From: a virus
Lineage: Duplodnaviria; Heunggongvirae; Uroviricota; Caudoviricetes
Virus record (IMG/VR): IMGVR_UViG_3300028887_000068
Location: 1 to 64,000 of that record
DNA: 64,000 nucleotides
Strand: one strand, 5' to 3'
This document shows, piece by piece, positions 1,461 through 60,028 of this stretch. The position numbers were made by a program, and so were the translations under genes. Each line of letters begins with the position of its first letter. Positions within the stretch are counted from its first letter, which is position 1. Below the pieces are notes generated by a model. It did no database searches and was not told the DNA's origin. It saw only the letters and a list, made by a program, of their open reading frames with translations.

Positions 1461-1490
1461 GTGTCAGAGCAATCTGGCACTTTCTTTTTT
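1461..1490 (+). terminator. rho-independent terminator
   Basis: Hairpin gtgtcagagcaatctggcac followed by tttctttttt. Confidence 0.6.
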
Positions 1491-1503
1491 GTATATTAAA
1501 GAA
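1489..1503 (+). promoter_or_regulatory. recurrent promoter-like motif TTGTATATTAAAG
   Basis: GTATATTA at 1491-1498, 40 nt upstream of the ATG at 1531. The same motif recurs upstream of many plus-strand genes. Confidence 0.5.
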
Positions 1504-1530
1504 GGCCATCTTTAACAATAGGAGACAACA

Positions 1531-2013
1531 ATGGCTAAGAAATACGAAGACTTTACGTATACTAATAAGCAAGAAGCTGTCAGAAGGGAAATTGAGAAGT
1601 GCGACTCAAAGTCCACCGGGTTGCAGGTTATTAAAGTATCCGAATCTAGCAAGGAAGTCAAGAAGCTCCTCGACGAATACACGTGTGAACTCGCCAAGAC
1701 CGAAGCATGGAAGGAAGTTACAGATAGCTACCAGTATAAGCGTGCTGTAGAAACAAGCTTCCGTTGCATCCGTAGCAAGATTAGCATGGATCCGCTGAAG
1801 ACATCCGAAGAATATATGGTATGGAACTTCTTGTACAGGTACGCAATGGTTGTCCGCGACAGACTGTACAATATGAAGCTCCTGTGTCCTGAACTCGTAA
1901 TCACACAGCTTGACAAGATTGGCGGTGGTTTCTATGATCCGGATATCCGTACGCTCACCAGTATTATCAATGAAACTGATCGCGAAAGAAGATCGATGGA
2001 AAGCTATGTCTGA
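1531..2013 (+). CDS. hypothetical protein
   Basis: 160-aa ORF. GGAGA lies about 8 nt upstream of the ATG. Confidence 0.6.
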   Translation: MAKKYEDFTYTNKQEAVRREIEKCDSKSTGLQVIKVSESSKEVKKLLDEYTCELAKTEAWKEVTDSYQYKRAVETSFRCIRSKISMDPLKTSEEYMVWNFLYRYAMVVRDRLYNMKLLCPELVITQLDKIGGGFYDPDIRTLTSIINETDRERRSMESYV

Positions 2014-2518
2014 CGAAATTAATAGACCTCCTTTTACACAACACCCGCTTCATGGCTTCATCATGGGTCTTGAACAGAGACGCTGTTATGATGCTAAGGA
2101 AGTGGACGACTACATTACAAAACTCCAAGATACAATTGCTGGACAGAAGACCGTTCATGATTGTTATCGTATGACGATGGATATGGCGATGACAAACTAT
2201 CTTTTCCAGATTGACAAGCAAAGACAGGCTCTCTTCAGGAAGAGATTAGAAGCGGCAGAATGGCAAGTGAGATACTGGTCTCTATTGTCTACTAAAGAGA
2301 CGGATATCTATTACGATGTGAGAAACCGTAGAGTTTCAACTTCACGGAATAAACTCAGGCCAAGTGCATGGGTTCATATCTGGCTTACGGTAAAACATAA
2401 GCTCGAAGCCTATATAGAAACATTCAATGCTCCGATAGAACTACGGCTGAATAAGATTATTTCGCCGGAAATGTTTAAGACTCTTTGGAAGCTTAGGGAA
2501 CAATGTTTGAAAGGTTAA
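2006..2518 (+). CDS. hypothetical protein
   Basis: ATG at 2006 overlaps the upstream stop (ATGTCTGA). The 1910 ORF start would give an unlikely long overlap. Confidence 0.55.
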   Translation: MSDEINRPPFTQHPLHGFIMGLEQRRCYDAKEVDDYITKLQDTIAGQKTVHDCYRMTMDMAMTNYLFQIDKQRQALFRKRLEAAEWQVRYWSLLSTKETDIYYDVRNRRVSTSRNKLRPSAWVHIWLTVKHKLEAYIETFNAPIELRLNKIISPEMFKTLWKLREQCLKG

Positions 2519-2709
2519 GACAGCTTTTTACTAAGAAGAATTCTCCATGCCGTCATAAGTGGGTTGCCTGTCATGATCCGTACAAACCAGAGCTAGGTAT
2601 ACATTACCGATGTTCTAAATGCGGCGAAAGACGGGAATCCATGTTTGAAGGACAGGAGAATGGAAGCTTTTACTCATTAGATCATTACATGATTCACAGA
2701 GGAAGATAA
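2503..2709 (+). CDS. small zinc-ribbon protein
   Basis: 68 aa with CxxxxxCH...CSKC cysteine pairs. It overlaps the previous gene end. Confidence 0.45.
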   Translation: MFERLRQLFTKKNSPCRHKWVACHDPYKPELGIHYRCSKCGERRESMFEGQENGSFYSLDHYMIHRGR

Positions 2710-2711
2710 CT

Positions 2712-3281
2712 ATGGGGCTATTCTCTTTTATATTCGGTAAACCAAAGACTAAAGAAGAACCAAAGAAAACAGCCTTTGAGCCAAGAGTAAAGACCGACTA
2801 CTTTACCACAAGGACTGTTAGAGCAGATTGCCAGAACTGTTGTCATAGACGTTCCGTTACTGGAAGCTTCTTCGAGTGCGATAAGGGATTCCCTGAAGAA
2901 TGTCTTGCACCCGAGCCTAAGAGCCCAAGGTCATGCCGAGAGATTGGAAGGGTTACGACAACCCTTACCTTTGACGAGCGTAACTTTGATGAGGAAATCA
3001 CTATCCCGTGCCTCTTAGCTTGTAGACTCGAAGAAGAATTGAAGCCGTATGAATGGTGTCAACATATTAAAGAAGACATTGACGTCATACTTTATGATAG
3101 AGAAGTCATCTTTAAGGTGATGATTTATTTGGCTTCGGAAACAGTTTATGACGGCGGTGATTACGGTATATTCATGGCTGATGTTGCAGAGAAGATAAAG
3201 AGAGACAAAGATCTCATGCGATACATCGGCAAGAAGTACGGTACAGCTAAAAAACCATTTTACCTTGAAGAAGAGGAGTAA
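2712..3281 (+). CDS. hypothetical protein
   Basis: 189-aa ORF starting 3 nt after the previous stop. Cys-rich N-terminal half. Confidence 0.6.
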   Translation: MGLFSFIFGKPKTKEEPKKTAFEPRVKTDYFTTRTVRADCQNCCHRRSVTGSFFECDKGFPEECLAPEPKSPRSCREIGRVTTTLTFDERNFDEEITIPCLLACRLEEELKPYEWCQHIKEDIDVILYDREVIFKVMIYLASETVYDGGDYGIFMADVAEKIKRDKDLMRYIGKKYGTAKKPFYLEEEE

Positions 3282-3284
3282 ATC

Positions 3285-3860
3285 ATGGCAGAAGAACTTG
3301 ACATGGAAGAAGTTCTTACAGTAGAACGTCTTTCAAGATTCATTGATATGAAAGGCTTATCAGAGGAGTGCAACGAATTCTGCATTAATCTGTATAAGAA
3401 AGACTTGAAGAAAGCCGCTGCCGTTCCAGTGGGTGACAGATTCTTCGCTTGGGAAGGATGCTACTCTAAGAGAGCATATGAACTCGCAGGAGAAGACTTC
3501 GACCGTGGCGGTGACTTTGGCTACATTTGTGCTAATCAAGAATTCTTCCCGTTTGGGTTTATCGACCCGAGTTCCAAGGATACTAAGCCCGAGGAACTTG
3601 AAGGCGAATTCATGACTATCGACGATATGACTAAGATCAATCCGGCTATTACCGTTGATTCTGTCTTCGAACAGTATAGAGCAATTCGCGATGGAGAATA
3701 TACTCCCGGTGATGGGAGATATAACTTCAGCGATTTTGGATTCTCCGAAAGGGATGAGCCTACTGATGACCAGATGAAGGCATGGCTTGCTCAGCTTAAG
3801 TTCGAGAAGCTTACGGATGAAAGAATCCTGAAACTTGGCCCAGAAGACTTCTTTGGTTAG
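3285..3860 (+). CDS. hypothetical protein
   Basis: 191-aa ORF. GGAG precedes the ATG. Confidence 0.6.
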   Translation: MAEELDMEEVLTVERLSRFIDMKGLSEECNEFCINLYKKDLKKAAAVPVGDRFFAWEGCYSKRAYELAGEDFDRGGDFGYICANQEFFPFGFIDPSSKDTKPEELEGEFMTIDDMTKINPAITVDSVFEQYRAIRDGEYTPGDGRYNFSDFGFSERDEPTDDQMKAWLAQLKFEKLTDERILKLGPEDFFG

Positions 3861-4537: not shown

Positions 4538-4544
4538 GTAATAA

Positions 4545-4576
4545 TGGTATCTGAAAGGATACCATTTCTTTTTTTG
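4545..4576 (+). terminator. rho-independent terminator
   Basis: tggtatctgaaaggatacca hairpin followed by tttctttttttg. Confidence 0.7.
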
Positions 4577-4594: not shown

Positions 4595-4607
4595 TTGTAT
4601 ATTAAAG
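4595..4607 (+). promoter_or_regulatory. promoter-like motif TTGTATATTAAAG
   Basis: GTATATTA at 4597-4604, 42 nt upstream of the ATG at 4639. Confidence 0.5.
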
Positions 4608-4638
4608 TATGTTCATATTAACCATAAGGAGGTACAAA

Positions 4639-5240: not shown

Positions 5241-5246
5241 AGAATA

Positions 5247-5275
5247 AGCCCAGTGACAGTGGGCTTTCTTTTTTC
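5247..5275 (+). terminator. rho-independent terminator
   Basis: agcccagtgacagtgggct hairpin followed by ttcttttttc. Confidence 0.7.
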
Positions 5276-5288
5276 TAGTATATTATAA
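5276..5288 (+). promoter_or_regulatory. promoter-like motif AGTATATTATAA
   Basis: GTATATTA at 5278-5285, 52 nt upstream of the TTG start at 5330. Confidence 0.45.
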
Positions 5289-5329
5289 AAAAGAAAAATA
5301 AACCTTAAAAACCAAGGAGAACAAGACTG

Positions 5330-6562
5330 TTGGAAACGCTGTTGAAATTATTGACCGAAAGATCCGTGAAAAGACTAGCTCTAAGTGATCTCGATAAGAC
5401 CATAGTCGATTTCATTGAAAGTAGTACGAATATCAGGGGAGACCTGAGCTTTGAACTTCAAGAAATCGACTTTAGGGTTCCACATTTTAATGTGGAGAAT
5501 CTCTCTGTGTTTGGCAATCAAGATCATACTCGTTTTGATAGTATGATACGCCAGCATGGGACTATCTATACCTCAATGTTCGGACAGTTCGTTAGAGAAT
5601 CCGGTGCCTCTGGTTGTCTATGGCAATTTGACAGAATCGATATGACTAGCGAAGCTGTCAGAGAGGCTACCAAAGAATTCGGACACAAGGAATTTGATGG
5701 AACCATTGAAATTGACAGAAGTGGCAGAGAAGAAGCCTTCGACAGAGTACTCAAGGCATGTCACTATAGAGAGATGGATTTCGGCATCAAAGTATACTTC
5801 AAGAGCAGTATAGGCTTAAGAAGCACTATCAATGGGAGCTTCGATGCAGAATCTTATTACGAAGCTGTTTTGTCGAACATCAAGTTCGTTAACAGAATGA
5901 AAAAAGTGGGTTACGATAGAGCTATAGTAACCCTCAGACATATAAGATACTGTCTGGAAAAGCCGCCTTCATGTTTAGAGAAGATGGCTATGTTTCCTGC
6001 TGGATTCCAGACCGAAAACGCATATCGCGATGACATTAAGTTTACGGCTTGGCAACTTCAAGTACTGTATTGGATATTGCAGGATCCCAATAACTTCTAT
6101 ATAACCGGAGACGGCTCTCACTACTTTACAGTACATAACAGGCGTCTGGAGGCCAAGATGACAAAGGACGAAGTCATGATACAAACCGTTGGTAACTCCT
6201 TCAAGAGTCTGACCAATGTCTTGCATGAAGTGAACTTTCCGGGTATCTCTGAAGAAGAGATGGGTGTATTTAATGCTATCTATAATCCAGAATACAATCA
6301 GACAGAGTTAAATGTCGACAGGGATGCTGCGATCATCGATGGTATTGATACAACAATAGAAGCTCTTGAGAAGACTATGGTCACATTGAAGATGGCCCAG
6401 AGTATGAATCGAGAGACGCTCGAAAAGTATCGTTATGATGTATCGGCAGTTATCTACGAAAAGATAAAGAACGATCCGATGACTTACAGTGTACAATCAA
6501 ATAACGAAACCATCAAGAAATTAGCTAACAGTCTACTTTCCAAAATCGAAGAGGAAGAATAA
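5330..6562 (+). CDS. hypothetical protein (TTG start)
   Basis: 410-aa ORF. AAGGAGA lies 9 nt upstream of the TTG at 5330, and there is no in-frame ATG nearby. Confidence 0.6.
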   Translation: METLLKLLTERSVKRLALSDLDKTIVDFIESSTNIRGDLSFELQEIDFRVPHFNVENLSVFGNQDHTRFDSMIRQHGTIYTSMFGQFVRESGASGCLWQFDRIDMTSEAVREATKEFGHKEFDGTIEIDRSGREEAFDRVLKACHYREMDFGIKVYFKSSIGLRSTINGSFDAESYYEAVLSNIKFVNRMKKVGYDRAIVTLRHIRYCLEKPPSCLEKMAMFPAGFQTENAYRDDIKFTAWQLQVLYWILQDPNNFYITGDGSHYFTVHNRRLEAKMTKDEVMIQTVGNSFKSLTNVLHEVNFPGISEEEMGVFNAIYNPEYNQTELNVDRDAAIIDGIDTTIEALEKTMVTLKMAQSMNRETLEKYRYDVSAVIYEKIKNDPMTYSVQSNNETIKKLANSLLSKIEEEE

Positions 6563-8861: not shown

Positions 8862-9629
8862 TCAACCAGAGAAGGCAGGAAGATATGCCGGAATATTAAG
8901 CATCTTGCGCTTGTATTCCATACGCTTCATGCGATCTGCCAGAGCAGTACGAACACCTTCGGACAATTCGTTAATGCCACCACGGATGAACGTATCAATC
9001 TGTTTGTAGGTGAACCCCATTTTCTCTTCATCAGACTGGCCAGTCAAGCCATCAGACGGAGTCTTGAGAACAAGGTCTTCAGGCAACCCAAGAGCGATAC
9101 CGAGTTCACGGACTTCGGTCTTGGTCAAATTAGCCATCGGAGCGATGCTTCCCATGTCAGCCCACATGGTGAAATATCCTATCATGAGCTCAGAGAGATT
9201 TGCAGTACAGATGATCAGAGAATCGCCAATAGTCTGTGCGATAGCAGTTTCAACAGCCGTTCTTACATGCGGAGTGATATTGGTATTAGCTTGGACGCTG
9301 AGATCTTGCTTAGCCGGAAGAGCAAGCCTTACAGTCGCCTTAGCCGCAAGCACAGCCATAGCAAGGTTAGCTTCGATAGTGTTGACAACGCCAGCAGCCT
9401 TGGCAGCACGCTTTGCGTCATCGAGGTCAACTTGAACACCGTTAGGCATGAAGATACCGTAAACATGTTCCGGGCCGACAGCCAAGGTAGCAACCTTAGC
9501 AAGAACGGTGGAGTCGGCACCGCCACTGATACCGAGAACGAGGTTCTTCATTCCGGCATCTGCAACGACCTGTGCCGTCCAGTCTACGATTTCTTTTTTG
9601 ACGATGTTAATGTCGTGAATCTTTTTCAT
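8862..9629 (-). CDS. nadE: NH3-dependent NAD+ synthetase
   Basis: PP-loop signature LVLGISGGADSTVLA (SGGxDS). Its roughly 255-aa length is typical of NadE. Confidence 0.85.
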   Translation of the reverse strand: MKKIHDINIVKKEIVDWTAQVVADAGMKNLVLGISGGADSTVLAKVATLAVGPEHVYGIFMPNGVQVDLDDAKRAAKAAGVVNTIEANLAMAVLAAKATVRLALPAKQDLSVQANTNITPHVRTAVETAIAQTIGDSLIICTANLSELMIGYFTMWADMGSIAPMANLTKTEVRELGIALGLPEDLVLKTPSDGLTGQSDEEKMGFTYKQIDTFIRGGINELSEGVRTALADRMKRMEYKRKMLNIPAYLPAFSG

Positions 9630-9645
9630 TTTTGTATACCTTTGG

Positions 9646-10215
9646 TTATTCGATCACTTCAATTTGTTGTGCACGGGCAACAGCCTTAGCTGCTTCATGA
9701 CCCGGTTGTTCACCATGTTCGTTAGGTAATCCTGCCGAGCAGGTGCTGTCCCAAATGATTCGCTTGTCTGGGAACATAGCTCTGAGGATAATAAGGTTGG
9801 CAATAACACAGATTTCAGAAACGAACCCGATGACGGTAATAGTTTCCGCTTGCTCAAGAACTCTACGCATTTCTGGGAGATAGTTTTGGTCATCTTTTTC
9901 AAGTCCCCAATTAAGGCAGCCGAAAGTGTGCTTTTCTACAATCTGAATGAGCTTCGGCTTTGCAGCTCTATAGATGCTCGGTTCGATTTCGTAGCCCTGA
10001 TCCTTAGCATAGACATCACAATGTTCCGGGATATGCTGGCCTTCGAGCGAGAACTTGTAGTAACGACCATCGTGCAAGTCTTCGGTCAGGATGACAGGCC
10101 CCTGATGGTTTTCGATTTTCTTAACGGCCTTTTCCAATACCGCTTGTGCCAACGGATTAGCGAGTCTTCCGTTGATGAAGTCTTTGTCAAAGTCAATACC
10201 AATAAGTGTATTCAT
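9646..10215 (-). CDS. pncA: nicotinamidase / isochorismatase-family cysteine hydrolase
   Basis: IGIDFDKDF N-terminal Asp motif and an EICVIANL catalytic-Cys motif. ATG at 10215 follows AGGTATAC. It lies within the NAD operon. Confidence 0.7.
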   Translation of the reverse strand: MNTLIGIDFDKDFINGRLANPLAQAVLEKAVKKIENHQGPVILTEDLHDGRYYKFSLEGQHIPEHCDVYAKDQGYEIEPSIYRAAKPKLIQIVEKHTFGCLNWGLEKDDQNYLPEMRRVLEQAETITVIGFVSEICVIANLIILRAMFPDKRIIWDSTCSAGLPNEHGEQPGHEAAKAVARAQQIEVIE

Positions 10216-10222
10216 TGTATAC

Positions 10223-12801: not shown

Positions 12802-12804
12802 GTT

Positions 12805-13094: not shown

Positions 13095-13149
13095 GTTGTT
13101 TCCTTTTGCAAAAGAAATAAGTATATGACCATTTAGCCATATACTGTAA

Positions 13150-13187
13150 AAAATAATATACGGCTTTACTTAGAGTAAAGCCGTATG
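13150..13187 (-). terminator. terminator for gene 13310-14326, adjacent to promoter-like motif
   Basis: Hairpin cggctttacttagagtaaagccg, followed on the minus strand by TATATTATTTTTT. The minus-strand motif GTATATTA (13154-13161) lies 60 nt upstream of the peptide ATG. Confidence 0.45.
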
Positions 13188-22992: not shown

Positions 22993-23066
22993 ACATTTCT
23001 CCTTGTATACTCTTTATTATATACTATGAAAAAATAAAGCTCATGGACGAATCCATGAGCAATTCT

Positions 23067-28395: not shown

Positions 28396-28628
28396 ACTAA
28401 CCCCCATAGAAGGCAAAGGTGTGGAACTTCATTTCTGTCTTAGTCTCTTCAAAGTCGATGAAGATTGCTATCTTGCCAGTAGCAGCCACGACAGACTGTC
28501 TAGCCGGAACACGCCGGAAAAATCTTCTGAATAAATTAGCCATTATATTTCTCCTTTTGATAAAATGGTTCATCAGTTTATATACTATCGAAGCATCGAA
28601 ACTTTGTAATGAAATAAAGAGGTATAGA

Positions 28629-31133: not shown

Positions 31134-31169
31134 AGTGACTCCTTTCGGTTATCACTATATAGTTGCCTG

Positions 31170-32037: not shown

Positions 32038-32096
32038 TAGTCTCCTTTATCTATAAATGGTTCATAGATTTATATGCTATTGAAAGATAATTTGAA

Positions 32097-32113
32097 CTAT
32101 ATATAAAGTATAG
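32097..32113 (+). promoter_or_regulatory. promoter-like motif CTATATATAAAGTATAG
   Basis: TATATATAAAG variant of the recurrent motif, about 45 nt upstream of the ATG at 32147. Confidence 0.35.
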
Positions 32114-32715: not shown

Positions 32716-32730
32716 CCTGATAGTATATTA
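32716..32730 (+). promoter_or_regulatory. promoter-like motif CCTGATAGTATATTA
   Basis: GTATATTA at 32723-32730. The 13-mer cctgatagtatat recurs at 59973. Confidence 0.45.
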
Positions 32731-32734
32731 TTTT

Positions 32735-33275
32735 GTGCTGTAGTAGAAATATTATAGCCTTATTCAAGATACATTGGAAATACTTTGGTATATATGGTAG
32801 TCTTGATAGCCTGAGCGGTATGCCGTTAGAGTGTACGGTATAGAAGTGGCTGAAACAACCGCAAGATGGCGATAAGATAGCGACGGTCTTCGTGGCTCAA
32901 GGGTTTAGCATCCTGAGAGCGTCCCGAACTTTCTAGCTAGGAAAGAGGGAATTCGTCGTAGCCGCATTTCTCAATGTCTGAAGAGAGTGCGGTAAGGATG
33001 TCGACAACATCTGAAGGACTAGTAATAGTTCATGCCCCCATATGCGCAGATGGGTAAGACACAAAGTTTAAGCAGGGTGACTCGGATAGCCTGTGGAGAC
33101 GATGTGCCGAATAGCCACGTCATGAACGAACGAGCGTTCATGGTAGAAGACCGGAAGAGAGCTTAAGATCTCTTCTGTAAAAGCTTCCTTGGAATTTGAT
33201 CTGACCAGCATGGCCTGCGTCAGTATTCCTTGGAAGTGATGGAAGCAGCTGAATTTCAGCTGCTTCTTTTTTTGT
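32735..33275 (+). ncRNA. candidate large structured ncRNA (about 540 nt), unclassified
   Basis: About 500 nt with no credible ORF on either strand. GC content is visibly above that of the flanking DNA. It is bounded by the promoter-like motif (32723) and a strong terminator (33241-33274). It contains many local inverted repeats, for example catgaacgaacgagcgttcatg and uaugccgu...acgguaua. Confidence 0.35.
33241..33274 (+). terminator. rho-independent terminator
   Basis: ggaagcagctgaatttcagctgcttc hairpin followed by ttttttttg. Confidence 0.75.
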
Positions 33276-33288
33276 TTGTATATTATAC
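33276..33288 (+). promoter_or_regulatory. promoter-like motif TTGTATATTATAC
   Basis: GTATATTA at 33278-33285, 39 nt upstream of the ATG at 33317. Confidence 0.5.
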
Positions 33289-33316
33289 CATAGCAACAAT
33301 TCTTAAAGGAGAAAAC

Positions 33317-36127: not shown

Positions 36128-36376
36128 TGTTTCGCTCCATTTTAAATTTTACTATGCGGCTTCTTGGGCCTGTTTCCAAAGTAAAGTTCGAACGGTTCTC
36201 CCATCAGAACAGAAAAGAATCGCTAATACTCCAACTCACTCTGAAGTATTTTAGCAATTCAAACTGAGTCTCCGTATTAGCATATCCAGCCTTTAATAGA
36301 GGAAGATCTCTGACGAGAAATTCGTACAATAAAAAGTTCGAAGAAATTTTCCTGCCCGAAAGCAGGAAAACTTGAT

Positions 36377-37353: not shown

Positions 37354-37482
37354 ACGACCTCGAAAAAATTTGAGGCCACGAAGGTGTTTGGATGTTTTGG
37401 CGTTAAGGTTAATCGTGGCCTCATTATGAAGTTTTCATAATAAAAATATGGAAAGCCTTTCAGCTTTCCATATTCTAGAATC

Positions 37483-40035: not shown

Positions 40036-40132
40036 AATAACCCTTTGAAAATTTCAATCAAAAGTTCAGGCTATCCTAAAAGGCTATTATCCGAAAGAAA
40101 TTTTTATTTTTAATTAAAACCTACAAAAAAGA

Positions 40133-40619: not shown

Positions 40620-40668
40620 TGAATTCCTCTACTCTTTAACTTTAAAATGAATTTACTAGAGGTATAAT

Positions 40669-42055: not shown

Positions 42056-42122
42056 AGTGTTTCCTTTATTATGCAGACATCATTATCTACATAGCCGAAC
42101 TTTATATACAATCATTTTTTAG

Positions 42123-42137
42123 ACTGTATATAAAGAC
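42123..42137 (+). promoter_or_regulatory. promoter-like motif ACTGTATATATAAAG
   Basis: GTATATAT at 42126-42133, 38 nt upstream of the ATG at 42164. Confidence 0.4.
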
Positions 42138-42163
42138 TTGACCTTAACCATAAAGGATAAAAC

Positions 42164-44777: not shown

Positions 44778-44812
44778 AATCTATCCTCAGTTTTCAATCT
44801 TAAGTTTTTCCA

Positions 44813-46124: not shown

Positions 46125-46179
46125 AATTACTCCTTACGATTTTTCCATTATGGAGTTTTCGCAGATTCTGCATCGTGGA

Positions 46180-46192
46180 ATGTATATTAAAT
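46180..46192 (+). promoter_or_regulatory. promoter-like motif ATGTATATTAAAT
   Basis: GTATATTA at 46182-46189, 42 nt upstream of the ATG at 46224. Confidence 0.5.
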
Positions 46193-46223
46193 TATGCCAT
46201 ACACACCAACAGGAGGTTAAACA

Positions 46224-46700
46224 ATGGCATTTTACGCTATGGTCTTAGATCCAAGACCGCCGTTCAAGCCTATGCAGACTAAAATTCTGAATAGACTGAA
46301 AGAGATCGCTTCAAATCTTCCGGAGGATATCCGCGAGGTTATCAAGAATCTCAAGGACTGGGAGATAAAATGTTCTCATATCACCGTATATTATGGAAAT
46401 CTCAAGGATATGTCGATCGCCATGATTGATTTTATCCGCAATACCAAATTCAAAATGATATTCGAGATTACCGATATCGGGATGAGACAGGGAGTTCTCG
46501 CTGTAAGGGTAGAACCGATCCTTAGAAAAGGCGAGGATTTCGTTACTAGTAGCAAGTTCCCGCATATTACGATTGCGGTGAAAGATGCTGCCCCAGTTCT
46601 GGCTAACAGCATTACTGAGTGGACAGATGTCCGTCAGTACTTCGACCATGCTCGTCATGGCGGATTCTACATCAGCGGTAGGCTGGAAAGAATCCATTAG
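46224..46700 (+). CDS. 2H phosphoesterase superfamily protein (LigT/ThpR-like)
   Basis: Two H-x-T-x motifs, CSHITVYYG and FPHITIAVK, spaced about 70 aa apart in a 158-aa protein. This is characteristic of 2H cyclic phosphodiesterases. Confidence 0.6.
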   Translation: MAFYAMVLDPRPPFKPMQTKILNRLKEIASNLPEDIREVIKNLKDWEIKCSHITVYYGNLKDMSIAMIDFIRNTKFKMIFEITDIGMRQGVLAVRVEPILRKGEDFVTSSKFPHITIAVKDAAPVLANSITEWTDVRQYFDHARHGGFYISGRLERIH

Positions 46701-46702
46701 AT

Positions 46703-46735
46703 AAGGGAGAGGTTTCTCTCCTTTATTTTTTTTTT
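46703..46735 (+). terminator. rho-independent terminator
   Basis: gggagaggtttctctcc hairpin followed by tttatttttttttatttt. Confidence 0.7.
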
Positions 46736-51857: not shown

Positions 51858-51925
51858 CCTCTTGCATCTAATGGTGCAAGGGGGAGTATTTTATAAAGGT
51901 GGATCCAAGATCCACCTTTTATTTT
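51858..51925 (+). terminator. tandem terminator hairpins
   Basis: ccttgcatctaatggtgcaagg, then aggtggatccaagatccacct followed by tttatttt. Confidence 0.6.
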
Positions 51926-51961
51926 ATGGAACTCCCTATTAGAACTAAACAAGGATCTAAC

Positions 51962-54900
51962 ATGAGAGCAAAGTATGATTTCCTGAAGCCGTACAAATCC
52001 TACAAGAATCTCACTATCGAATTCGCCACGAAGCGTAAACAGTATGAGAACAGTGTGATTGTGTACACGGAAAGCCTTGAGAATATGATACAGCTGATGA
52101 ACCGCCGTATCTTTGATCCTCAGCACATCTGGGCTTTCTACATGGACAAATTTATTGATAAGATTGTCTTCAAGAAAACCATTCAGACGGAAAGACTGTC
52201 TATCTACGACCAAGTTAAAGAAAAGACTGGCGTAGCCCTGACACCGCTAAACACTGGTGTACTCAGATTGAAGAATACCTACTTCTCTGCATATCAGGAA
52301 CTCAACCGTTTGTTTGAGATTCCGGGATCTGCTAAGAACAAAATGGCATACATCCATAACTTCGCCGCTGCAAACGCAGTGGTTATGAGACGTGGCTCTG
52401 AAGCTATATACAAGGATCAGTATGTGATTCTTGATGGTAGTATCTTTGGCAAGGAATTCGGTGACAACGAATCTGTCAATATCAGAGGTCTCTGCGTGGG
52501 TTCTCTCTTCTATCTGGCTGCCAAGGAAGCAATCACTAAGAACAATCCGGCTCTCTGGCCTCTTCATGGAAAGAAGTGTATCCTTGTTGAACCGAATACT
52601 GGGTTGATGTTTATCATTCCGCCATCTTTGGAGAAGCTTACTCTAGCCAGATTCAGATGGATGCTTAACCTCTGTCACAAGGGTGCAACTGCTCAGAAGA
52701 TTACCGAAGAAGACATGGCAGAACCGACAGAAGGAGAACCGCTGAAAGCTCCGAAGGCAGTAACGGATCTCTTCTTGGTCGAAAGAGCTGTTAGCGGAAA
52801 GAATAATACTTTCCCTTCTGGAGCAAAGCTCTATACGACTACAGCCGAAGCCATTGAAGCATACATCAAGGCTACATACCCGGATGCCGCTTGTAACCCG
52901 GTCGAAGATGCTATCGTCTTTACTGGCGACACTCAGTCTGCTGATGCTATCAAGGCTATGATGAACAAGTCATTGTCTCTCTACCGTATCAAAGCTACAG
53001 ATGAGACGATGAAGACAATCACGAAGCTCTCTGGCTACTATAAGAGCAAGTCTAGTATCCAGCTCGAACAGTATAAGAATATCGCCATCAAGAAGAGTGG
53101 TGATACTGTCAACGGTGTTAAGATTTACATTGACCTTTCATCTGAGAATCCGGCTATCGCCGAAAAGAAAGATGAAGTGATCAAGAGTATTCCGGGTATG
53201 AATAACTCTGTTCCGCTTACGAGCGAACAGAAGGAACTCGTTTATACCATTAAAGACCGTGTTGACGAAATCAGTGCCGAAGCCAAGGGCAAGACTTTCG
53301 ATGAACTGATGAAGATGGTTAATGAAGATGAGAAGCTTAACAATCTGAAAACAGAATTGAAGGCTAACCGTCTTCAGGAAGTCCAGAACATTCGTAAATC
53401 CGAAGCTGTAACTCAGCTTGAAGAAAAGCAGGAAGAAGCTGTACTCGTCATCAATGGTAAGTCTATTCCTTTGAAAGAAAAGCTGAAGGAACTCGAAGAC
53501 TCTAATCTTGAACCGGAGCATTTTGAAACCACAGCTGTAAACAAAGAAGTGAACAGTGCTGTCGTTCCGGCTCTCCGTAAGGCATACCGCAAGGACTTGT
53601 ACGATTACGACCAGTATCGTATCTTTACATCTTTCTCTGATTCTTCTGAATTCCCGATCTTCGTTAACTCCATCACTAAGGAAGACTCCTCCGATGCTTA
53701 CAATGCTAAGGAGACCCTCAACATCAAATTTAGCATTGCAGGTGGTGCTCCGAAGTCTCTTATCGTGGATGTTCCGAAGGTTGACCAAGACGGATTCCTC
53801 TATCTTCAGGGTAACCGTAGACAGATCACCAACCAGATTACTCTTATGCCGATCGTTAAGGTATGGCAATCTGGTGATCCGGTTGTACAATACTCTACAT
53901 CCTACAACAAGATCTTTATCTCTAGATCTACGCAGACATTCAACCGTAGGCTAGCTTCTCTGAGAAAGGGTATCGGTAAGCTGAAGGAAGACCGTAATCT
54001 GAATAAGGACGGAGCAGTAATCGTTCCGGGTAGGGGCTATCGTAAGAAGTTCCCGAAGAGACTCAATCTTGAATACGAAGAATTGGGCAAGTTCCTCTCA
54101 GCTTACAAGATTGGCGATCTTGATATCGACTTTGACCCGAAGCGTTGTTTTGAAACTGTTGAGAAGCTCGACAAGGAACTCATTGCAGAATACGCTCCTG
54201 AAGGCAAGTTTAACTATATCGGTAAGCTGAAGGGTAAACCTCTCTTTGCAGCTGTTACTGGCGAAGTTGTTACGCTTGATAAAGACGGTATCACTGAAGT
54301 TGCTAAATCTATCTGCGCATTGATCAATGAATGCTCGAAGGTCTCCAAGACTATTTCTGAAACCCTTGAGAACAACAAGTACACGGGTAATAGCCTCATG
54401 TTTACGAAGCTGGAAGTGGCTAATGCTTACATTCCGCTTATTGTGTTCTTGGGCTATAAGGAAGGCATTGAAAAGATCTTTGATACATACGGAGTAGACT
54501 ACAAGTTCCTTCCGATTGAAAAGGGAATGGACAGACCCGCTGCAAGCGAAGATTATCCCGAAGCCATTAAATTCCGTAATGGTTATCTCGTGTTCAAGGA
54601 TGATAATCCGGTTCACGGATTGCTTTATAACGGTCTCCATCAGCTTGAGACCCAGAAGCATAACCTTGAAGACTATAAGGCAGGTGGACAAGGATTCGTT
54701 GATTACTTTGCAGACAAGCTCACACCGAGATATGGCAGAGCCTTGGATAACTTCTATGTGCTCTTCATCGACCCAATTACGAAGGACATCCTCCGTGATA
54801 AGGGAATCCCCAATAACCTCGTTGGAAGCTTCCTGTATTGTAACGATCTTCTTATCGACTCTGCGTTCTCTAGACGCTATGACATTAATATCTACCGTAT

Positions 54901-56542
54901 CCGTAACACCGAATGTATCAATGCCATGCTCTACAAGATTGTGGCTAGAGAAATCGAATCCTACCGTAGAACGGGAACGGGTACTGGCGGTGCTTTCAAG
55001 ATTAAGCGCAATGCTTTGATGGAAGAAATCAATGAGACTGCTAACTTTGAAGACTCTACCTTGATCAATCCGATTAAGGACTGTGAGAACATGGCAAAGT
55101 CCATCTTCAAAGGCCCCGGTGCTCCAGACTATCAACATGCCCAAGGCACTGAAGAACACCGTTTCTTCGATATCAGCATGACTGGTATTTATGGCTACTC
55201 TTCTTCTTATGACGGTAATGCTGGCATGAACAAGAAGCTGTCCATGAATTCCTCCATCGTGTCTAAGCGTGGTTACTTGAAGCAGGTTGACCCGAACAAG
55301 ATTGATGCTACGGCGATCTACAGTACTGGTGAACTTGCTGCATCCTTCACTTGTCGTCATGCCGACCCGGCTCGTTCTATGATGTGCGTGCTTCAGACTG
55401 GCCATATGATTCCGTCTGTAGGTATGAGCCAACCGCTTGTATCTTCCGGCGTGTTCAAGGCTATTCCGAACATTGTATCGCAGGACTACTGCTTTAAGGC
55501 TCCGTGTGCAGGTGTAGTCAAGGGTTTTGATTCCAAGCTCAAGAATCTCTTGAAGCTCGAATACACCGATGGCACTAAGGGCATCATTGACATGACTCCG
55601 AGATACTGCCGTACTCCATCTGGCTTCTTTGTCCATATTGAATACGCATTGAAGCATGGAGTAAAGGCTGGATACAAGTTTACTGAGAATGAAGTGTTAG
55701 CCTTTGACAAGCACTTCTTCAAGGACGACCCGGCTGAAGGTATCGAAATGTACAAGGGTGTGCTCGCTAGAGTAGCAGCATGTGGTCTTGACCAGACATA
55801 CGAAGATGCTTCTGTCATTAGCCAGAACCTGTCTGAAAAGCTCGCTTCTGAAGTGATCGAACAATCTGCTCTTGGTTTGACGGCTGACAGTAACCTTATC
55901 TCCATCAAGAAAGTGGGCGACAAGGTGAAGGTTGGCGAACCGCTTGCTATCTTTGAAAGCAGCCTTGAAAGCAAGGAAATCTCTTCGTTGCTCTCCAAAC
56001 TTGATACGGATACCAAGTCAGCATTGGAAGCTAACGCTAGAAACTCCAAGCTTTCTAAGTACGAAGGTACAATCGTTGACATTGAAGTATTCTACGATAA
56101 GCCGATCGAAGAGTACAGTGAGAGCCTCCAGAAGCTCATTAAGTCCTACATTAAGGATGTGGAAGCCACGAACAAGGCTTACTCTGAAGTAAGGTCTGAC
56201 CAACTTGTCAGACGCAAGGATACAGAGATTGCAAAATACAGCAAGGCAAAGGGCGTTCCGTTTGAGGGCGTTATGATTAACTTCTATATCTCGCATCTTC
56301 TTGACTACTCTTGCGGTGATAAGATCACTTATGACGTTGCACTTAAGAGCATCGTGAGCCGAATCATTCCACAGAATGAAACTCCAATTTCCGAATACAG
56401 ACCGGACAAGCCGATTGATGCTTGCACTAGCCCGTATGGTATCGTCAACCGTAAGGTTCCTGACGTGTTCTATCTTGGCTATACGAATAAAGCACTAATT
56501 GGCCTCAAGGAACGTGTTGAGGAGATCTGGAATGGCAAATAG
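51962..56542 (+). CDS. giant protein (about 1526 aa) with RNAP-beta-like hybrid-barrel motifs, function unknown
   Basis: AAGGAT lies 6 nt upstream of the ATG at 51962. The ORF-track start at 51899 lies inside the terminator hairpin. VGDKVKVGEPLAIFES and YEGTIVDIEVFYDKP resemble the sandwich-barrel hybrid motifs of bacterial RpoB (GDILVGKVTPKGE / VSGTVIDVQVFTRDG). Confidence 0.6.
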   Translation: MRAKYDFLKPYKSYKNLTIEFATKRKQYENSVIVYTESLENMIQLMNRRIFDPQHIWAFYMDKFIDKIVFKKTIQTERLSIYDQVKEKTGVALTPLNTGVLRLKNTYFSAYQELNRLFEIPGSAKNKMAYIHNFAAANAVVMRRGSEAIYKDQYVILDGSIFGKEFGDNESVNIRGLCVGSLFYLAAKEAITKNNPALWPLHGKKCILVEPNTGLMFIIPPSLEKLTLARFRWMLNLCHKGATAQKITEEDMAEPTEGEPLKAPKAVTDLFLVERAVSGKNNTFPSGAKLYTTTAEAIEAYIKATYPDAACNPVEDAIVFTGDTQSADAIKAMMNKSLSLYRIKATDETMKTITKLSGYYKSKSSIQLEQYKNIAIKKSGDTVNGVKIYIDLSSENPAIAEKKDEVIKSIPGMNNSVPLTSEQKELVYTIKDRVDEISAEAKGKTFDELMKMVNEDEKLNNLKTELKANRLQEVQNIRKSEAVTQLEEKQEEAVLVINGKSIPLKEKLKELEDSNLEPEHFETTAVNKEVNSAVVPALRKAYRKDLYDYDQYRIFTSFSDSSEFPIFVNSITKEDSSDAYNAKETLNIKFSIAGGAPKSLIVDVPKVDQDGFLYLQGNRRQITNQITLMPIVKVWQSGDPVVQYSTSYNKIFISRSTQTFNRRLASLRKGIGKLKEDRNLNKDGAVIVPGRGYRKKFPKRLNLEYEELGKFLSAYKIGDLDIDFDPKRCFETVEKLDKELIAEYAPEGKFNYIGKLKGKPLFAAVTGEVVTLDKDGITEVAKSICALINECSKVSKTISETLENNKYTGNSLMFTKLEVANAYIPLIVFLGYKEGIEKIFDTYGVDYKFLPIEKGMDRPAASEDYPEAIKFRNGYLVFKDDNPVHGLLYNGLHQLETQKHNLEDYKAGGQGFVDYFADKLTPRYGRALDNFYVLFIDPITKDILRDKGIPNNLVGSFLYCNDLLIDSAFSRRYDINIYRIRNTECINAMLYKIVAREIESYRRTGTGTGGAFKIKRNALMEEINETANFEDSTLINPIKDCENMAKSIFKGPGAPDYQHAQGTEEHRFFDISMTGIYGYSSSYDGNAGMNKKLSMNSSIVSKRGYLKQVDPNKIDATAIYSTGELAASFTCRHADPARSMMCVLQTGHMIPSVGMSQPLVSSGVFKAIPNIVSQDYCFKAPCAGVVKGFDSKLKNLLKLEYTDGTKGIIDMTPRYCRTPSGFFVHIEYALKHGVKAGYKFTENEVLAFDKHFFKDDPAEGIEMYKGVLARVAACGLDQTYEDASVISQNLSEKLASEVIEQSALGLTADSNLISIKKVGDKVKVGEPLAIFESSLESKEISSLLSKLDTDTKSALEANARNSKLSKYEGTIVDIEVFYDKPIEEYSESLQKLIKSYIKDVEATNKAYSEVRSDQLVRRKDTEIAKYSKAKGVPFEGVMINFYISHLLDYSCGDKITYDVALKSIVSRIIPQNETPISEYRPDKPIDACTSPYGIVNRKVPDVFYLGYTNKALIGLKERVEEIWNGK

Positions 56543-56544
56543 CC

Positions 56545-56580: not shown

Positions 56581-56624
56581 AAACTAAAGATTGATTAAAC
56601 TTTAACTCACGTCGGGGGTATACC

Positions 56625-57995
56625 TTGATTATCGACTTTCTCTATGGGGTCGCTACTTCGGCGATCGGTAACATCACGAGACAGATCAATTTAGTGACAA
56701 AGAAGAAGGGGCCAGCTCCGGCTTCTATTAATCTTTCCATCGCCGCCAAACAGAGTATCGCAAGATTTCCTCTGTTGACCTCTGCTAGCATTTCTGAATC
56801 AGGCATCTTTAAAGCTCAGAACAAGATGGAATACATTGTAGGCTCGTTCATTCGACTCTACATTACGAACATCCGTTCCTTCATTGACGATGACGGTACG
56901 GCTAAGATCGACGTTCTTGCCGACATCACTGGTGACCGTTCTGGAGCAGGTGCTGGCAAGGTATCTGGCATCCTCGGAAAGCTTGCCGACTTCGCTAACA
57001 GTATCATGAATGTCGCCGGACGTGAATCCGTCGAAATGAATCCCAAGGATATTCAGGATCTCTTCATGGTTGAAGAAGAAGATGTTACTGCATTCCTCAA
57101 TATGCACAACCTCTTCGATAACTCCGTCCTTGAAGAAGGTGCTACTGGTTCTGTGGCTCCTGTGTCTGGCCCAGTTCAGGGAACTCCGGTTCTCAATCCG
57201 CTTCACTACGAAGATACCAAGACTCATGCAGCCAACTGTACTTGCTCTAAGTGTGTAGCTGCTCGTAAAGCCTCCAAGGGTGATAAGACGGCTCAGGAAA
57301 GCTTGACAGCGCGTAAGGAAGGTTCTGATTTCATTTCCGAACGCAAGGCTGCTTTAATTGAAAAGAAGTCTGATGAATCTGAACCAGTAATTGTGACTGG
57401 TACTCTTACAATTCTCGACTGCGATGGCAAGATCAGCGGTACTACTGATATCTCTGTCGGTGTCAAGTGCCCGATTCACATCTTCCCGTCTGAAGAATTC
57501 ATCAATACCATCATTAGTGGCTTCTCTGAAAACAACCTCTTTATCCGCTTGATGAAGTGGCGAGCTGGTGAAATTGGCTTCCTCGATGCCTTCCTCAATA
57601 AAGCAAAGGTTGATCTTTCCATCGTTGCAAATCATAAGTCCTTCAAGGGTCGTGCAAAGAATGTGAAAGAGATTCTTCAGGAAGACAAGTATTACCGTGA
57701 AAAGGTATACGGCAACGAAAAGGAAGGAGCCAACATCCTTGTTATCACTGACGAAGAAGTTCGTGAAGTCGAAAGACGCACTGGCAAGAACTTGCTCGAC
57801 TCTCCGGCTACGGCTGTCAGATTCTGCAAGAATCAGAAGCTCTTTGGTCTTATGATTTACGATGAAATCTCCGAATCCGGTAAGATGATCATCACCAACT
57901 TCAGCGACAAGTTTGAACATATCAGCTTCAAGGAAAAGGGTGCCAAGGGCACTGATGATGTTATCAAGAACATCTTTGGAGCTTTAAGGAGATAA
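56625..57995 (+). CDS. hypothetical protein (TTG start)
   Basis: 456-aa ORF. GGGGGT precedes the TTG. Confidence 0.55.
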   Translation: MIIDFLYGVATSAIGNITRQINLVTKKKGPAPASINLSIAAKQSIARFPLLTSASISESGIFKAQNKMEYIVGSFIRLYITNIRSFIDDDGTAKIDVLADITGDRSGAGAGKVSGILGKLADFANSIMNVAGRESVEMNPKDIQDLFMVEEEDVTAFLNMHNLFDNSVLEEGATGSVAPVSGPVQGTPVLNPLHYEDTKTHAANCTCSKCVAARKASKGDKTAQESLTARKEGSDFISERKAALIEKKSDESEPVIVTGTLTILDCDGKISGTTDISVGVKCPIHIFPSEEFINTIISGFSENNLFIRLMKWRAGEIGFLDAFLNKAKVDLSIVANHKSFKGRAKNVKEILQEDKYYREKVYGNEKEGANILVITDEEVREVERRTGKNLLDSPATAVRFCKNQKLFGLMIYDEISESGKMIITNFSDKFEHISFKEKGAKGTDDVIKNIFGALRR

Positions 57996-57997
57996 TC

Positions 57998-59029
57998 ATG
58001 CAAAGTTTTTATGGTTCGTTTAAGAAAGGTTTGAAGGCTACCTCGGATCTTGCTAAGAACGCGATCGATAAGACAGCTTCTAAGATCCGTAGCAACAGCT
58101 TCTGTATCATCGCCAAGATTATGAAGACCGATGTTGAATACGTCCGTATGCAACAGAGAATGTCCTCGGCAATCTGGGGCGGTGGAATGGGCGATGGAGA
58201 CTTCAAGAAAGCCAAGAACTTCATGGTTTCCTACAATCTCCTTAAGACAATGGAAAAGAAAGTCTCTGGTCAAGACAGAAAGCTTCTCGTTCCGTTGATC
58301 AATTTCCGTAACAAGATTGATTCCAATGCAACAGCTATCAAGAAAGCCTGTGTTGGCAGTGCCGAAACGACAGATATCTTTAATTCCATGATTGGTATTT
58401 GGGTATGGCTCGTCGGTATGGTTGCAGCATCCGGTCTTCGCTTTGACTCCAACAAGAAAGTCTGTTGGGCTGCCAATAAGAAGACAATGCACTTCCTTTG
58501 GGAAGCCAACAACCTTGAGAAATCTGCGAAGTTCTCCAAGTTCGTTGAAGCACGAATCAGAGAATTCGATAATAAGATCGTCAAGGCTAATGCTATCGAT
58601 AAGATGCTCAATGGCTCTGCTGCTAATGAAGCCATCATTCCGGTAGCGATTGCAGCTGTCATTGCTACACCTGTGATCATTTACGGTATCTACGAGCTCA
58701 TTCAGTTCGTCTACTTTACCTTCCGTCATATTCGCATGGAACTCAGTGAATTCATTGAGCTGCAGAGCGAGTATCTTCAGGCGGAAAGCGGTGCTTCGGA
58801 TTCTAAGTCCGTAGCTTCCAACCTCTCTGAAATCTCTAAGAAGGTTCAGAACATCGCCTTCACCATTGGCGAAGACTATGACGCACTGGAAAAGAAAGTG
58901 ACGAAGCAGAGCGAGAGTATGCGTAAGCAGGTCGAAAAGGAAGTCAAGACTTCTAACGATATGGAAAGAGAAACCAATGATGTTTCCGCTTCCAAGATCG
59001 AAACTTCCAGCAACGATCTCTTGTTCTAA
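57998..59029 (+). CDS. hypothetical protein with TM helix and coiled coils
   Basis: 343 aa. The start follows the previous stop by 3 nt. TM segment IIPVAIAAVIATPVIIYGIY. Confidence 0.6.
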   Translation: MQSFYGSFKKGLKATSDLAKNAIDKTASKIRSNSFCIIAKIMKTDVEYVRMQQRMSSAIWGGGMGDGDFKKAKNFMVSYNLLKTMEKKVSGQDRKLLVPLINFRNKIDSNATAIKKACVGSAETTDIFNSMIGIWVWLVGMVAASGLRFDSNKKVCWAANKKTMHFLWEANNLEKSAKFSKFVEARIREFDNKIVKANAIDKMLNGSAANEAIIPVAIAAVIATPVIIYGIYELIQFVYFTFRHIRMELSEFIELQSEYLQAESGASDSKSVASNLSEISKKVQNIAFTIGEDYDALEKKVTKQSESMRKQVEKEVKTSNDMERETNDVSASKIETSSNDLLF

Positions 59030-59113
59030 CTTAAGAATAACATCTAGGCCATACCCTAGATGTTATTTTATTTGCAAACTTACCATTGAATAAACTTACT
59101 AGAAGGTGTGCAT

Positions 59114-59929
59114 ATGCTGTCTAAATTCGCTGAAAAGATTTTGTCTGATCTTAAAAACGAAGTTGCCGAAACAGAAAAGACTTGGAAGGCATTGAGAGTA
59201 CAGACTAACCCGATGGAATCTAGAGAAGTAGAACCATTCCTCAATGCAAAAAAGAAACTCTATGCAAATGCCATTGCACATTACAGTGCTATGCAGTTAG
59301 ACGGCATTTCCGAAACTGTTGCCGATGCCTATAAGACCCTCAGAAACCTTGAAAGGGTTAAGGTTGACGCTAATGTTGACTTGGCACAGGAATCCGCCTT
59401 CTTTATCTTCAACCCGAAAGCTGCAAGAGAAACTCTTCAGAAAGCCGAAGCCGAAATTGCCCAGATCCGTTCCGATCTCGCTATCGTAAAGGAATTCGTG
59501 GCTCCGATCGGTGCTATGACCGAAGCTAAGGCTGCTAACTGCCATCGTGCTTTGAAGTCTCTGGAAAGCCGTATCGCTAGCGAAAACTACGGATTCGGTA
59601 ATAACTCCTTCAAGCTCACTCAGCAAAATACTACCAAGGGCAATGCCCTAGCATCTTCCGATAACATGGTCAAATTCGGTGTCCAGTTTGCCATGTCCAA
59701 TGCCAAGAACGCTTCTACACTTGACTTCCTTGGCAAGATGCTTGAAAAGCTTGCTGCTACCTCTGATTACACTTCATTGTCTATCACAGCAAGAGAAGCT
59801 TTTGACCGTACCATTAAGGTATTGGAACACGCTCCTAAGATGATTTCGGCATATGCTGATACAGTCAACCGCTGTGTTAATAGCATTAACGAATCTAATC
59901 AGGAAATTGGGTTCTACATCAACCTGTAA
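59114..59929 (+). CDS. hypothetical alpha-helical protein
   Basis: AAGGTG lies 5 nt upstream of the ATG at 59114. Confidence 0.55.
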   Translation: MLSKFAEKILSDLKNEVAETEKTWKALRVQTNPMESREVEPFLNAKKKLYANAIAHYSAMQLDGISETVADAYKTLRNLERVKVDANVDLAQESAFFIFNPKAARETLQKAEAEIAQIRSDLAIVKEFVAPIGAMTEAKAANCHRALKSLESRIASENYGFGNNSFKLTQQNTTKGNALASSDNMVKFGVQFAMSNAKNASTLDFLGKMLEKLAATSDYTSLSITAREAFDRTIKVLEHAPKMISAYADTVNRCVNSINESNQEIGFYINL

Positions 59930-59933
59930 AATT

Positions 59934-59962
59934 ATACGCTATGGAAACATAGCGTAAATTTT
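59934..59962 (+). terminator. terminator
   Basis: acgctatggaaacatagcgt hairpin followed by aaatttta. Confidence 0.5.
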
Positions 59963-59970
59963 ATACTCCT

Positions 59971-59985
59971 GATAGTATATGAATT
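59971..59985 (+). promoter_or_regulatory. promoter-like motif (variant GTATATGA) sharing a 13-mer with 32716
   Basis: cctgatagtatat is shared with the candidate ncRNA promoter. It lies about 53 nt upstream of the ATG at 60029. Confidence 0.4.
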
Positions 59986-60028
59986 GATGATCTAATAATA
60001 CAATTAGACTAATCATAAGGAGATAATT

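Follow-up and report, generated by a model that had tools for sequence, protein, structure and literature searches.

The 64,000-nucleotide stretch analysed here, positions 1 to 64,000 of the IMG/VR virus record IMGVR_UViG_3300028887_000068 (the window), carries a short recurrent element built on the octamer GTATATTA in front of many of its transcription units. By its sequence, it belongs to a jumbo phage that has not been cultivated. With a probability of about 0.75, we propose that this phage has a virion-associated multisubunit RNA polymerase (vRNAP), that the octamer element (E element) represents early promoters read by this vRNAP, and that a second element, AACT-N6-TGA (L element), represents late promoters for a non-virion RNA polymerase (RNAP). 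This reading draws on how often both motifs occur, where and in which orientation they lie and how well they are conserved, together with the homology of an encoded RNAP subunit to a known vRNAP.

Exact copies of GTATATTA had been reported by a first-pass annotation of this DNA at 1491, 4597, 5278, 32723, 33278 and 46182 on the plus strand and at 13154 on the minus strand, and all were present as claimed. Its estimate of about four copies by chance was too high, as dinucleotide shuffles of the window gave 1.6 +/- 1.3 copies compared to the eight observed, and none of 100 shuffles reached eight. Intergenic DNA was defined by a curated gene map built from the open reading frame (ORF) list, ribosome-binding sites and codon scoring, and comprises 3.5 kb (5.6% of the window) with a GC content of 35%. 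Seven of the eight octamers are intergenic, as had been claimed of all copies. The eighth, at 46386..46393 (+), had been overlooked; it lies inside gene 46224-46700 with no purine at +7, poor flanks and a weight-matrix score below 8, and is probably non-functional. The degenerate form GTATATWA occurs 13 times in the window. Eleven of these copies are intergenic, compared to 0.49 expected under a first-order Markov model of intergenic sequence, where the maximum in 2000 simulations was 4. This is roughly 20-fold above the expectation from intergenic composition, so the AT-richness of the spacers does not explain the enrichment. The earlier view that the distribution is not due to chance was upheld, and the motif is not equally frequent inside genes, the outcome that had been named as telling against it.

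Additional E sites were found by a one-mismatch search followed by a scan with a position weight matrix (PWM). Both variants given in the first-pass annotation exist, but the one at 42126 reads GTATATAA rather than GTATATAT, and GTATATGA begins at 59975 rather than 59976. Its list was also incomplete, with minus-strand sites at 23017, 28578, 42102 and 32070 and a weak plus-strand site at 32099 having been overlooked. When the sites were aligned, a purine emerged exactly 7 nt past the octamer at all 12 intergenic sites (11 GTATATWA plus GTATATGA at 59975), with G at nine of them; this offset had played no part in the site search. The same purine was present at 7/7 sites in two related phages described below, and the base directly before it is T at 8/12 window sites and 7/7 sites in the relatives. 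Both genic GTATATWA copies, 46386 (+) and 11370 (-), have a pyrimidine in its place. The extended pattern GTATATWA-N6-R occurs 11 times compared to 1.5 expected, and the full E-class element, as read from this alignment, is (W)GTATATWA-N5-T-R. An AAATTYT-like block is found 19 nt upstream of the octamer at 4597, 32723, 46182 and 59975, as well as at counterparts in the relatives and in flanking sequence.

All 13 PWM hits above 13 bits were intergenic. Twelve are followed at 24-59 nt by a start codon on the same strand that has a Shine-Dalgarno sequence, while the thirteenth, 32723, is at the head of a ~530-nt ORF-less stretch that ends in a terminator. Measured from the start of the motif, the distance to the start codon is 38-54 nt at the plus-strand sites of the first-pass annotation and 32-67 nt over all sites. 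The plus-strand framing of that annotation holds for the sites it listed but is too narrow, since there are five good minus-strand sites; on both strands, E motifs are strictly co-oriented with the downstream gene or ORF-less RNA. The motif had been described as often lying just past a terminator, and we found terminator hairpins directly before 1491, 4597, 5278, 23017, 32723 and 33278. At 1491, 5278, 23017 and 33278 the motif starts a few bases past the terminator T-tract, leaving no space for any other promoter of the downstream unit. The sites at 28578, 42102, 42126, 46182 and 59975 are away from any terminator T-tract. The core interpretation of the motif as a recurrent promoter-class element is most likely correct and fits every test that relies on sequence only, and it is on this basis that we infer promoter function for the E motif.

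The putative promoter at 1491..1505 (+), GTATATTA-N6-G, lies 8 nt past terminator 1459-1482 and its T-tract and 40 nt before the ATG at 1531, and would head a unit of eight genes of unknown function. The same sequence at 4597..4611 (+) is preceded by terminator 4543-4566 and a GAATTTT block 19 nt upstream and followed by the ATG at 4639; at 1491 and 4597 the octamer is extended to TTGTATATTAAAG, as previously noted. The form GTATATTA-N6-A occurs at 5278..5292 (+), between terminator 5246-5266 and a TTG start at 5330, and at 33278..33292 (+), between terminator 33241-33267 and the ATG at 33317. The site with the top PWM score, 32723..32737 (+), follows terminator 32668-32697 and is predicted to drive the ~530-nt ORF-less stretch up to terminator 33241-33267. 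A further GTATATTA-N6-G at 46182..46196 (+) precedes the ATG at 46224 and is divergent from an L motif at 46145.

Putative promoters of the form GTATATAA-N6-G are located at 23010..23024 (-), after terminator 23060-23039 and before the ATG at 22992, and at 28571..28585 (-), where the site precedes the ATG at 28543, heads a minus-strand array of ~40 small genes and is divergent from a putative L promoter at 28600. Two more, 42095..42109 (-) with the ATG at 42055 and 42126..42140 (+) with the ATG at 42164, stand back to back as a 10-nt inverted repeat. The site at 59975..59989 (+), GTATATGA-N6-G, would drive a 13-aa mini-ORF at 60029-60070, and its position is kept in both relatives. The variant GCATATAA-N6-G at 32063..32077 (-), before the ATG at 32037, was outside the PWM training set and scored 16.1 bits, and a weak E-like variant, ATATATAA-N6-G, lies at 32099..32113 (+) upstream of the ATG at 32147. 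The minus-strand copy at 13147..13161 is doubtful as a promoter because its octamer (13154) shares bases with terminator 13186-13158, in the 3' arm and the T-tail, and a second hairpin, 13145-13120, follows. The first-pass annotation was correct that a reverse-complement copy precedes the NAD operon, as a 35-aa ORF (13094-12987) and the NAD salvage genes are found downstream of it, but the promoter status of this copy should be interpreted with caution.

Conservation was assessed in three IMG/VR contigs representing two distinct relatives, M1 and M3, which share ~70-75% nucleotide and ~80% protein identity with the window and cover the equivalent of its positions 26-64 kb. The PWM was trained on window sites only and then run on the relatives. 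The top four hits in M3 were all intergenic, as were five of the top six in M1. Sites orthologous to window 59975 were found at M1 37637 and M3 35884, and the 42102/42126 pair has orthologous pairs in both M1 and M3, reading ATATATAA and ACATATAA. The divergent region matching window 28578 carries an E-like site, GCATATTA, in M1 at 2074 (-). Flanking sequence of the same phage, 8.4 kb past the right end of the window and 3.4 kb past the left end, was outside the motif definition. GTATATWA has three exact matches in these 11.8 kb, each of them between genes, in the correct orientation and with N6-G after it. Two of these flank sites repeat layouts seen in the window, one as an E/L divergent pair before a 1300-aa tail gene and the other as an E/E pair.

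The L element came from an expectation-maximization (EM) motif search of 26 upstream regions, run after ribosome-binding site trimming and T-run masking. The top motif was AAAACT-N6-TGA, and GTATATTA was recovered as a separate motif, so the motif discovery suggested in the first-pass annotation returned its octamer. A first EM run had been dominated by the ribosome-binding site and terminator T-tracts, and both classes emerged only after trimming and masking. AACT-N6-TGA has no overall excess in the window (12 copies compared to 13.7 expected); 9/12 copies are intergenic (p = 1e-9). With TGG and TAG variants included, 12 L sites precede start codons; the distance is 17-31 nt at ten of them and 49 and 68 nt at the remaining two. 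In the relatives, AACT-N6-TGA precedes orthologous late-type genes, often in identical form. The exact AR9 late pattern, AACA-N6-TR, was not enriched in intergenic DNA (4/86 copies).

The E and L classes precede different genes, except for a doubtful tandem before the NAD operon (L at 13299, E at 13154). Every window gene with an AR9 homologue (g128, g205, g214, g189, g218 and g233) sits in an L unit and none in a GTATATWA unit, and the E motif is absent in front of virion-protein and vRNAP genes. Those genes of E units that were scanned mostly had no Pfam match, the matches being NAD salvage genes, a PspA-like protein and a histidine phosphatase. Together, E and L cover most of the ~26 upstream regions of at least 30 nt, with 23495, 40619 and 47475 carrying neither, and no third motif was detected in a limited motif screen of the upstream regions.

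On the plus strand, the L motif AACT-N6-TGA at 28600..28612 is 17 nt before the ATG at 28629 of a virion protein homologous to AR9 g205. The longest-ORF start of this gene, 28419, is over-extended, and its true start is most likely 28629, which has both a ribosome-binding site and the L motif. Further plus-strand L motifs lie at 40638..40650 (upstream of 40669-41115), 51930..51942 (AACT-N6-TAG, upstream of the vRNAP beta-like gene), 56582..56594 (upstream of 56625-57995, whose product is homologous to minor virion protein g214 of AR9) and 59077..59089 (upstream of 59114-59929). Minus-strand L motifs are found at 31152..31164, upstream of 31133-30915 and identical in M1; at 36176..36188, a TGG variant upstream of the anaerobic ribonucleotide reductase (NrdD) gene 36127-33845; at 37421..37433, upstream of 37353-36377; and at 40054..40066, upstream of 40035-37483, a homologue of the AR9 portal protein g128. 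Others are located at 44794..44806, upstream of an FtsH-like AAA/M41 protease gene (44777-42813); at 46145..46157, a TGG variant upstream of 46124-44813 and divergent from the E site at 46182; and at 63229..63241, upstream of 63211-60157, in a unit that includes homologues of AR9 g233 and g218.

The gene at 51962..56542 (+) encodes a multisubunit RNAP beta-like subunit (PHROG 14872 and 3148) that is homologous to AR9 g189, which is annotated as a vRNAP subunit. A tblastn search of the AR9 genome matched g189 in several exons with E values of 2e-44 and 8e-34, and identity to AR9 is ~25-39%. An initial assumption that the gene corresponds to AR9 g078 was rejected, as tblastn matched g189 and, weakly, the non-virion g089, but not g078. 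The closest cultured relatives of the RNAP, at ~30% identity, are from Listeria phage LPJP1, Bacillus phages PBS1/AR9 and Staphylococcus jumbo phages. The gene is part of an L-type unit beside virion-protein homologues, and genes close to it have matches in the portal protein and virion proteins of AR9. Its longest-ORF start, 51899, is over-extended, with the GTG lying inside terminator hairpin 51895-51919; an independent call gives 1526 aa, and the true start is most likely 51962. Strong AGGAGG ribosome-binding sites and the nearest RNAP relatives suggest that the hosts are likely Gram-positive.

Early transcription in phiKZ- and AR9-like phages is carried out by a multisubunit RNAP that is injected with the DNA, and early promoters of this class are ~10-nt AT-rich conserved blocks centred near -10, with the start ~six bases downstream (PMC7598289, PMC5312081). 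According to a 2020 review, all jumbo phages that encode an RNAP have a recognizable conserved early motif (PMC7598289), and such a motif is therefore expected here. The likeness to early promoters of jumbo-phage virion polymerases that the first-pass annotation had pointed out was supported by the encoded g189 homologue and by a shared TATATTA core and N6-purine architecture. In the mechanism we propose, the injected vRNAP would recognize the octamer, positioned at about -14 to -7, would need neither a -35 box nor a host sigma factor, and would start transcription at the conserved purine seven bases downstream. It would transcribe short units made up mostly of unknown-function genes, plus the ~530-nt non-coding RNA and the mini-ORF unit, with each early unit bounded by an intrinsic terminator, often immediately before the next promoter. 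AAACT-N6-TG(A) would serve as the late promoter for the non-virion RNAP, analogous to AACA-N6-T(A/G) in AR9. The polymerase reading each motif, the start sites and the timing are all assigned by analogy.

Several observations weigh against this reading. The predicted start is one base nearer the TATATTA core than in AR9, and the conserved block is 8 nt long and begins with G, compared to 13 nt in AR9. The copy at 13154 is embedded in a terminator, and TATATT resembles a bacterial -10 hexamer whose spacing to the predicted start would be workable. The window contains a single RNAP subunit gene, and non-virion RNAP genes, which are expected with E promoters, were not seen in the window and fetched flanks. 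No related loci were found for window positions 1-28 kb, where the sites from 1491 to 23017 lie. Related-locus scans with the proteins encoded at 5330-6562, 10223-11521 and 24194-24838 yielded no relatives, and exact-protein look-ups of 1531-2013, 3285-3860 and 2712-3281 returned no record. A scan of Listeria phage LPJP1 was uninformative, as its genome is too AT-rich (133 TATATWA matches in 43 kb).

Most phages express their early genes from host sigma-A/sigma-70 promoters, and an extended -10 element for host sigma had been the other suggestion of the first-pass annotation. We consider it unlikely that the motif is a strong -10 element read by host RNAP. TATATT does match TATAAT at 5/6 positions, as an AT-rich hexamer 7 nt from the conserved purine, and the upstream T-rich stretch could serve as an UP element. 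A weak -35-like hexamer is present at 18 nt at 4597 (TTGCGA) and 32723 (TTGTAA), but these are the only two sites that pass even a lax 9-of-12 rule; the other 10/12 E sites have no -35 match, and two-hexamer matches were at chance in three 20-kb scans of 1-60000 (45 vs 38, 41 vs 35 and 39 vs 35). The extended form fares no better, since the invariant G adjoins TATAT, there is no TG at -15/-14 and no register gives TGnTATAAT. The last T of the -10 hexamer is critical for binding by sigma region 2. This position is T at seven window sites, A at four and G at one, with A predominating in the relatives, so that TATATA or TATATG is present at roughly half of the sites, including those in the relatives, whereas G and TATAT never vary. 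A near-invariant octamer is typical of phage-polymerase promoters rather than sigma-A promoters. Host sigma was rejected as the best explanation on the chance-level two-hexamer matches, the wrong register of the G and the unconserved last T. Also against it, early transcription is independent of host RNAP in the virion-RNAP jumbo phages examined, phiKZ and AR9 (PMC5312081, PMC7598289).

The motif might instead be a promoter read by another enzyme, either the non-virion RNAP in a 'middle' mode or host core RNAP with a phage specificity factor, which we regard as slightly less probable still. The sequence does not directly identify what reads the motif, and phiKZ has a third, middle promoter class (PMC7598289, PMC8244752). 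However, the core is common to experimentally assigned vRNAP promoters of three phage lineages (PMC5312081, PMC7058600), and the genes that a non-virion RNAP would be expected to transcribe are already covered by the AACT-N6-TGA class. The broad coverage of upstream regions by E and L, with no third motif in the limited screen, also weighs against this reading, and no sigma-like gene was detected among the proteins scanned. It is very improbable that the motif is not a promoter at all and represents a by-product of AT-rich composition or terminator tails, an operator for a DNA-binding protein, or an RNA element in 5' untranslated regions (UTRs). The low GC content of the intergenic DNA, the terminator-embedded copy at 13154 and the partly palindromic TATATA core speak for such readings, but the ~20-fold excess is measured over intergenic composition itself, and five sites are away from any T-tract. 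Strict co-orientation with genes on both strands argues against a symmetric operator, the purine is conserved at a fixed offset, and the post-terminator sites have no room for a promoter that would place the motif in RNA.

Returning to the proposed vRNAP units, the ORF-less stretch of ~530 nt at 32737-33270 (+), between the E site at 32723 and terminator 33241-33267, is GC-richer than its surroundings. M3 has the same layout, with an E promoter, ~640 nt without an ORF and a terminator, and a 47-nt block (window 32972-33018) is common to both ORF-less stretches at 79% identity. Rfam and tRNA scans of the window were negative, with no Rfam match for 32737-33270. We consider this stretch a candidate conserved large early non-coding RNA. 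The mini-ORF unit at 59975-60158 (+) consists of the E site, the 13-aa ORF and a strong terminator near 60120-60158, with a conserved hairpin (59935-59956) in front of it. Both relatives keep the unit, with an ORF of 24-26 aa, and the peptide sequence is not conserved. In the relatives, a perfect E motif at M1 13570 (+) and M3 12913 (+), equivalent to window ~37354-37482, points antisense into the 850-aa portal-like gene. It may produce an antisense early transcript in these phages, and it has no counterpart in the window.

The relatives lack the cassette at 46160-46718, in which a putative E promoter is followed by a 158-aa gene and a terminator. At the equivalent position in M1, both the E-like promoter (GCATATTA) and the small gene are different ones, and the locus looks like a hot spot for early-gene swapping. 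The NAD salvage/synthesis operon at 8862-13094 (-), with AACT-N6-TGA at 13299 and the doubtful E copy upstream, encodes on the minus strand a NAPRTase (11521-12801), an NMN adenylyltransferase-Nudix fusion (10223-11521), an isochorismatase/nicotinamidase-like protein (9646-10215) and an NAD synthase (8862-9629). This operon may counter NAD-depleting host defences. The gene at 42813-44777 (-), behind a putative L promoter, encodes an FtsH-like AAA+/peptidase M41 protein, and a flotillin/SPFH-domain protein is encoded at 1-1437 (+), with a full length of 576 aa.

Directly upstream of the RNAP beta-like gene is a 1438-aa ORF at 47528-51844 (+), also called at 1438 aa on contig L012 of the same phage. 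It had no Pfam or PHROG match and no megablast or tblastn match in the phage collection, and no nucleotide match to the relatives spans most of it. The motif upstream of this ORF is AACT-N7-TGA, with a spacing of 7 nt instead of 6. About 7.5 kb past the right end of the window, at 210-940 of L012, a tRNA-like sequence is apparently split by an ORF with an HNH_3 domain, with AACT-N6-TGA just upstream, and may be an intron-containing tRNA gene.

Taken together, these results would extend to a distant lineage, represented only in metagenomes, the phiKZ/AR9 paradigm of early transcription by a virion RNAP and late transcription by a non-virion RNAP. They provide a transcription map of 64 kb, drawn from sequence alone, with ~13 putative early-type and ~12 putative late-type promoters and units bounded by terminators. 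Late promoters of these phages generally escape bioinformatic prediction (PMC7598289). That a late class is detectable here, and is AR9-like, was less expected than the early motif. A stronger proposal, which we put at a little under even odds, is that this lineage keeps the complete AR9-style two-polymerase promoter grammar (TATATTA-type early and AAC(N)-N6-T-R late) despite the ~25-39% RNAP identity. If so, the late-promoter recognition mode of the non-virion RNAP would be ancient and widespread among jumbo phages of Gram-positive hosts, rather than peculiar to Bacillus phages with uracil-containing DNA, and the conserved ~0.5-kb non-coding RNA would be among the first products of the vRNAP. 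The analysis reveals no new mechanism and is useful for annotation of this phage group. Both consensus sequences could be used to sort its genes into early and late classes, to flag non-coding early transcripts, and to pick out early genes directed against the host or its defences, such as the swappable cassette at 46160-46718 and possibly the NAD salvage operon.

Among known systems, the phiKZ group has early promoters of the form TATATTAC in phiKZ and ...TATATTAC....GTG in 201phi2-1 (PMC7058600), and in phiKZ these are assigned to the injected virion RNAP. The TATATTA core of the E element is shared with phiKZ (TATATTAC), 201phi2-1 (...BTATATTACDWHDGTG) and OBP/N1M2 (...AKATATTATYWWADTG), as are a T-G dinucleotide ~5-6 nt past the core, the predicted start in the window, and T-rich sequence upstream of about -19 (PMC8244752, PMC7058600). 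The window differs in lacking a C after TATATTA and the long upstream TTTCARR block of OBP and N1M2, and in its likely Gram-positive hosts.

The early promoters of AR9 have the consensus AAATATATATTAT-(6N)-G+1, based on 41 sites mapped by differential RNA sequencing (PMC5312081), and eight of them were re-extracted from the AR9 GenBank annotation for comparison. As in AR9 and PBS1, the E element has a TATATTA core in an AT-rich block near -10 followed by six unspecified bases and a purine, here the predicted start, with no -35 element. It likewise lies before operons of small unknown-function genes, in many cases past a terminator or between divergent genes, and is not found immediately before virion-protein genes. 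The distance from motif to start codon is 32-127 nt at the eight AR9 sites and 24-59 nt here. In contrast to AR9, the block in the window is shorter by five bases, accepts A or T at position 7 and opens with an invariant G (or A in the relatives) instead of the AAATA extension, in addition to the one-base shift of the predicted start towards the core.

The L element resembles the AR9 late promoter, AACA-(6N)-T(A/G)+1, which is read by the non-virion RNAP. Recognition of AR9 late promoters involves reading of the template strand in uracil-containing DNA and a fifth subunit, gp226. Both elements consist of AAC, one further base, six unspecified bases, a T and a purine, which here is the predicted start, and both are found directly upstream of virion-protein and vRNAP genes, with short 5' UTRs (predicted ones in the window). 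They differ in the fourth base, which is T here and A in AR9, and in the predicted start, which here is almost always G, followed by A.

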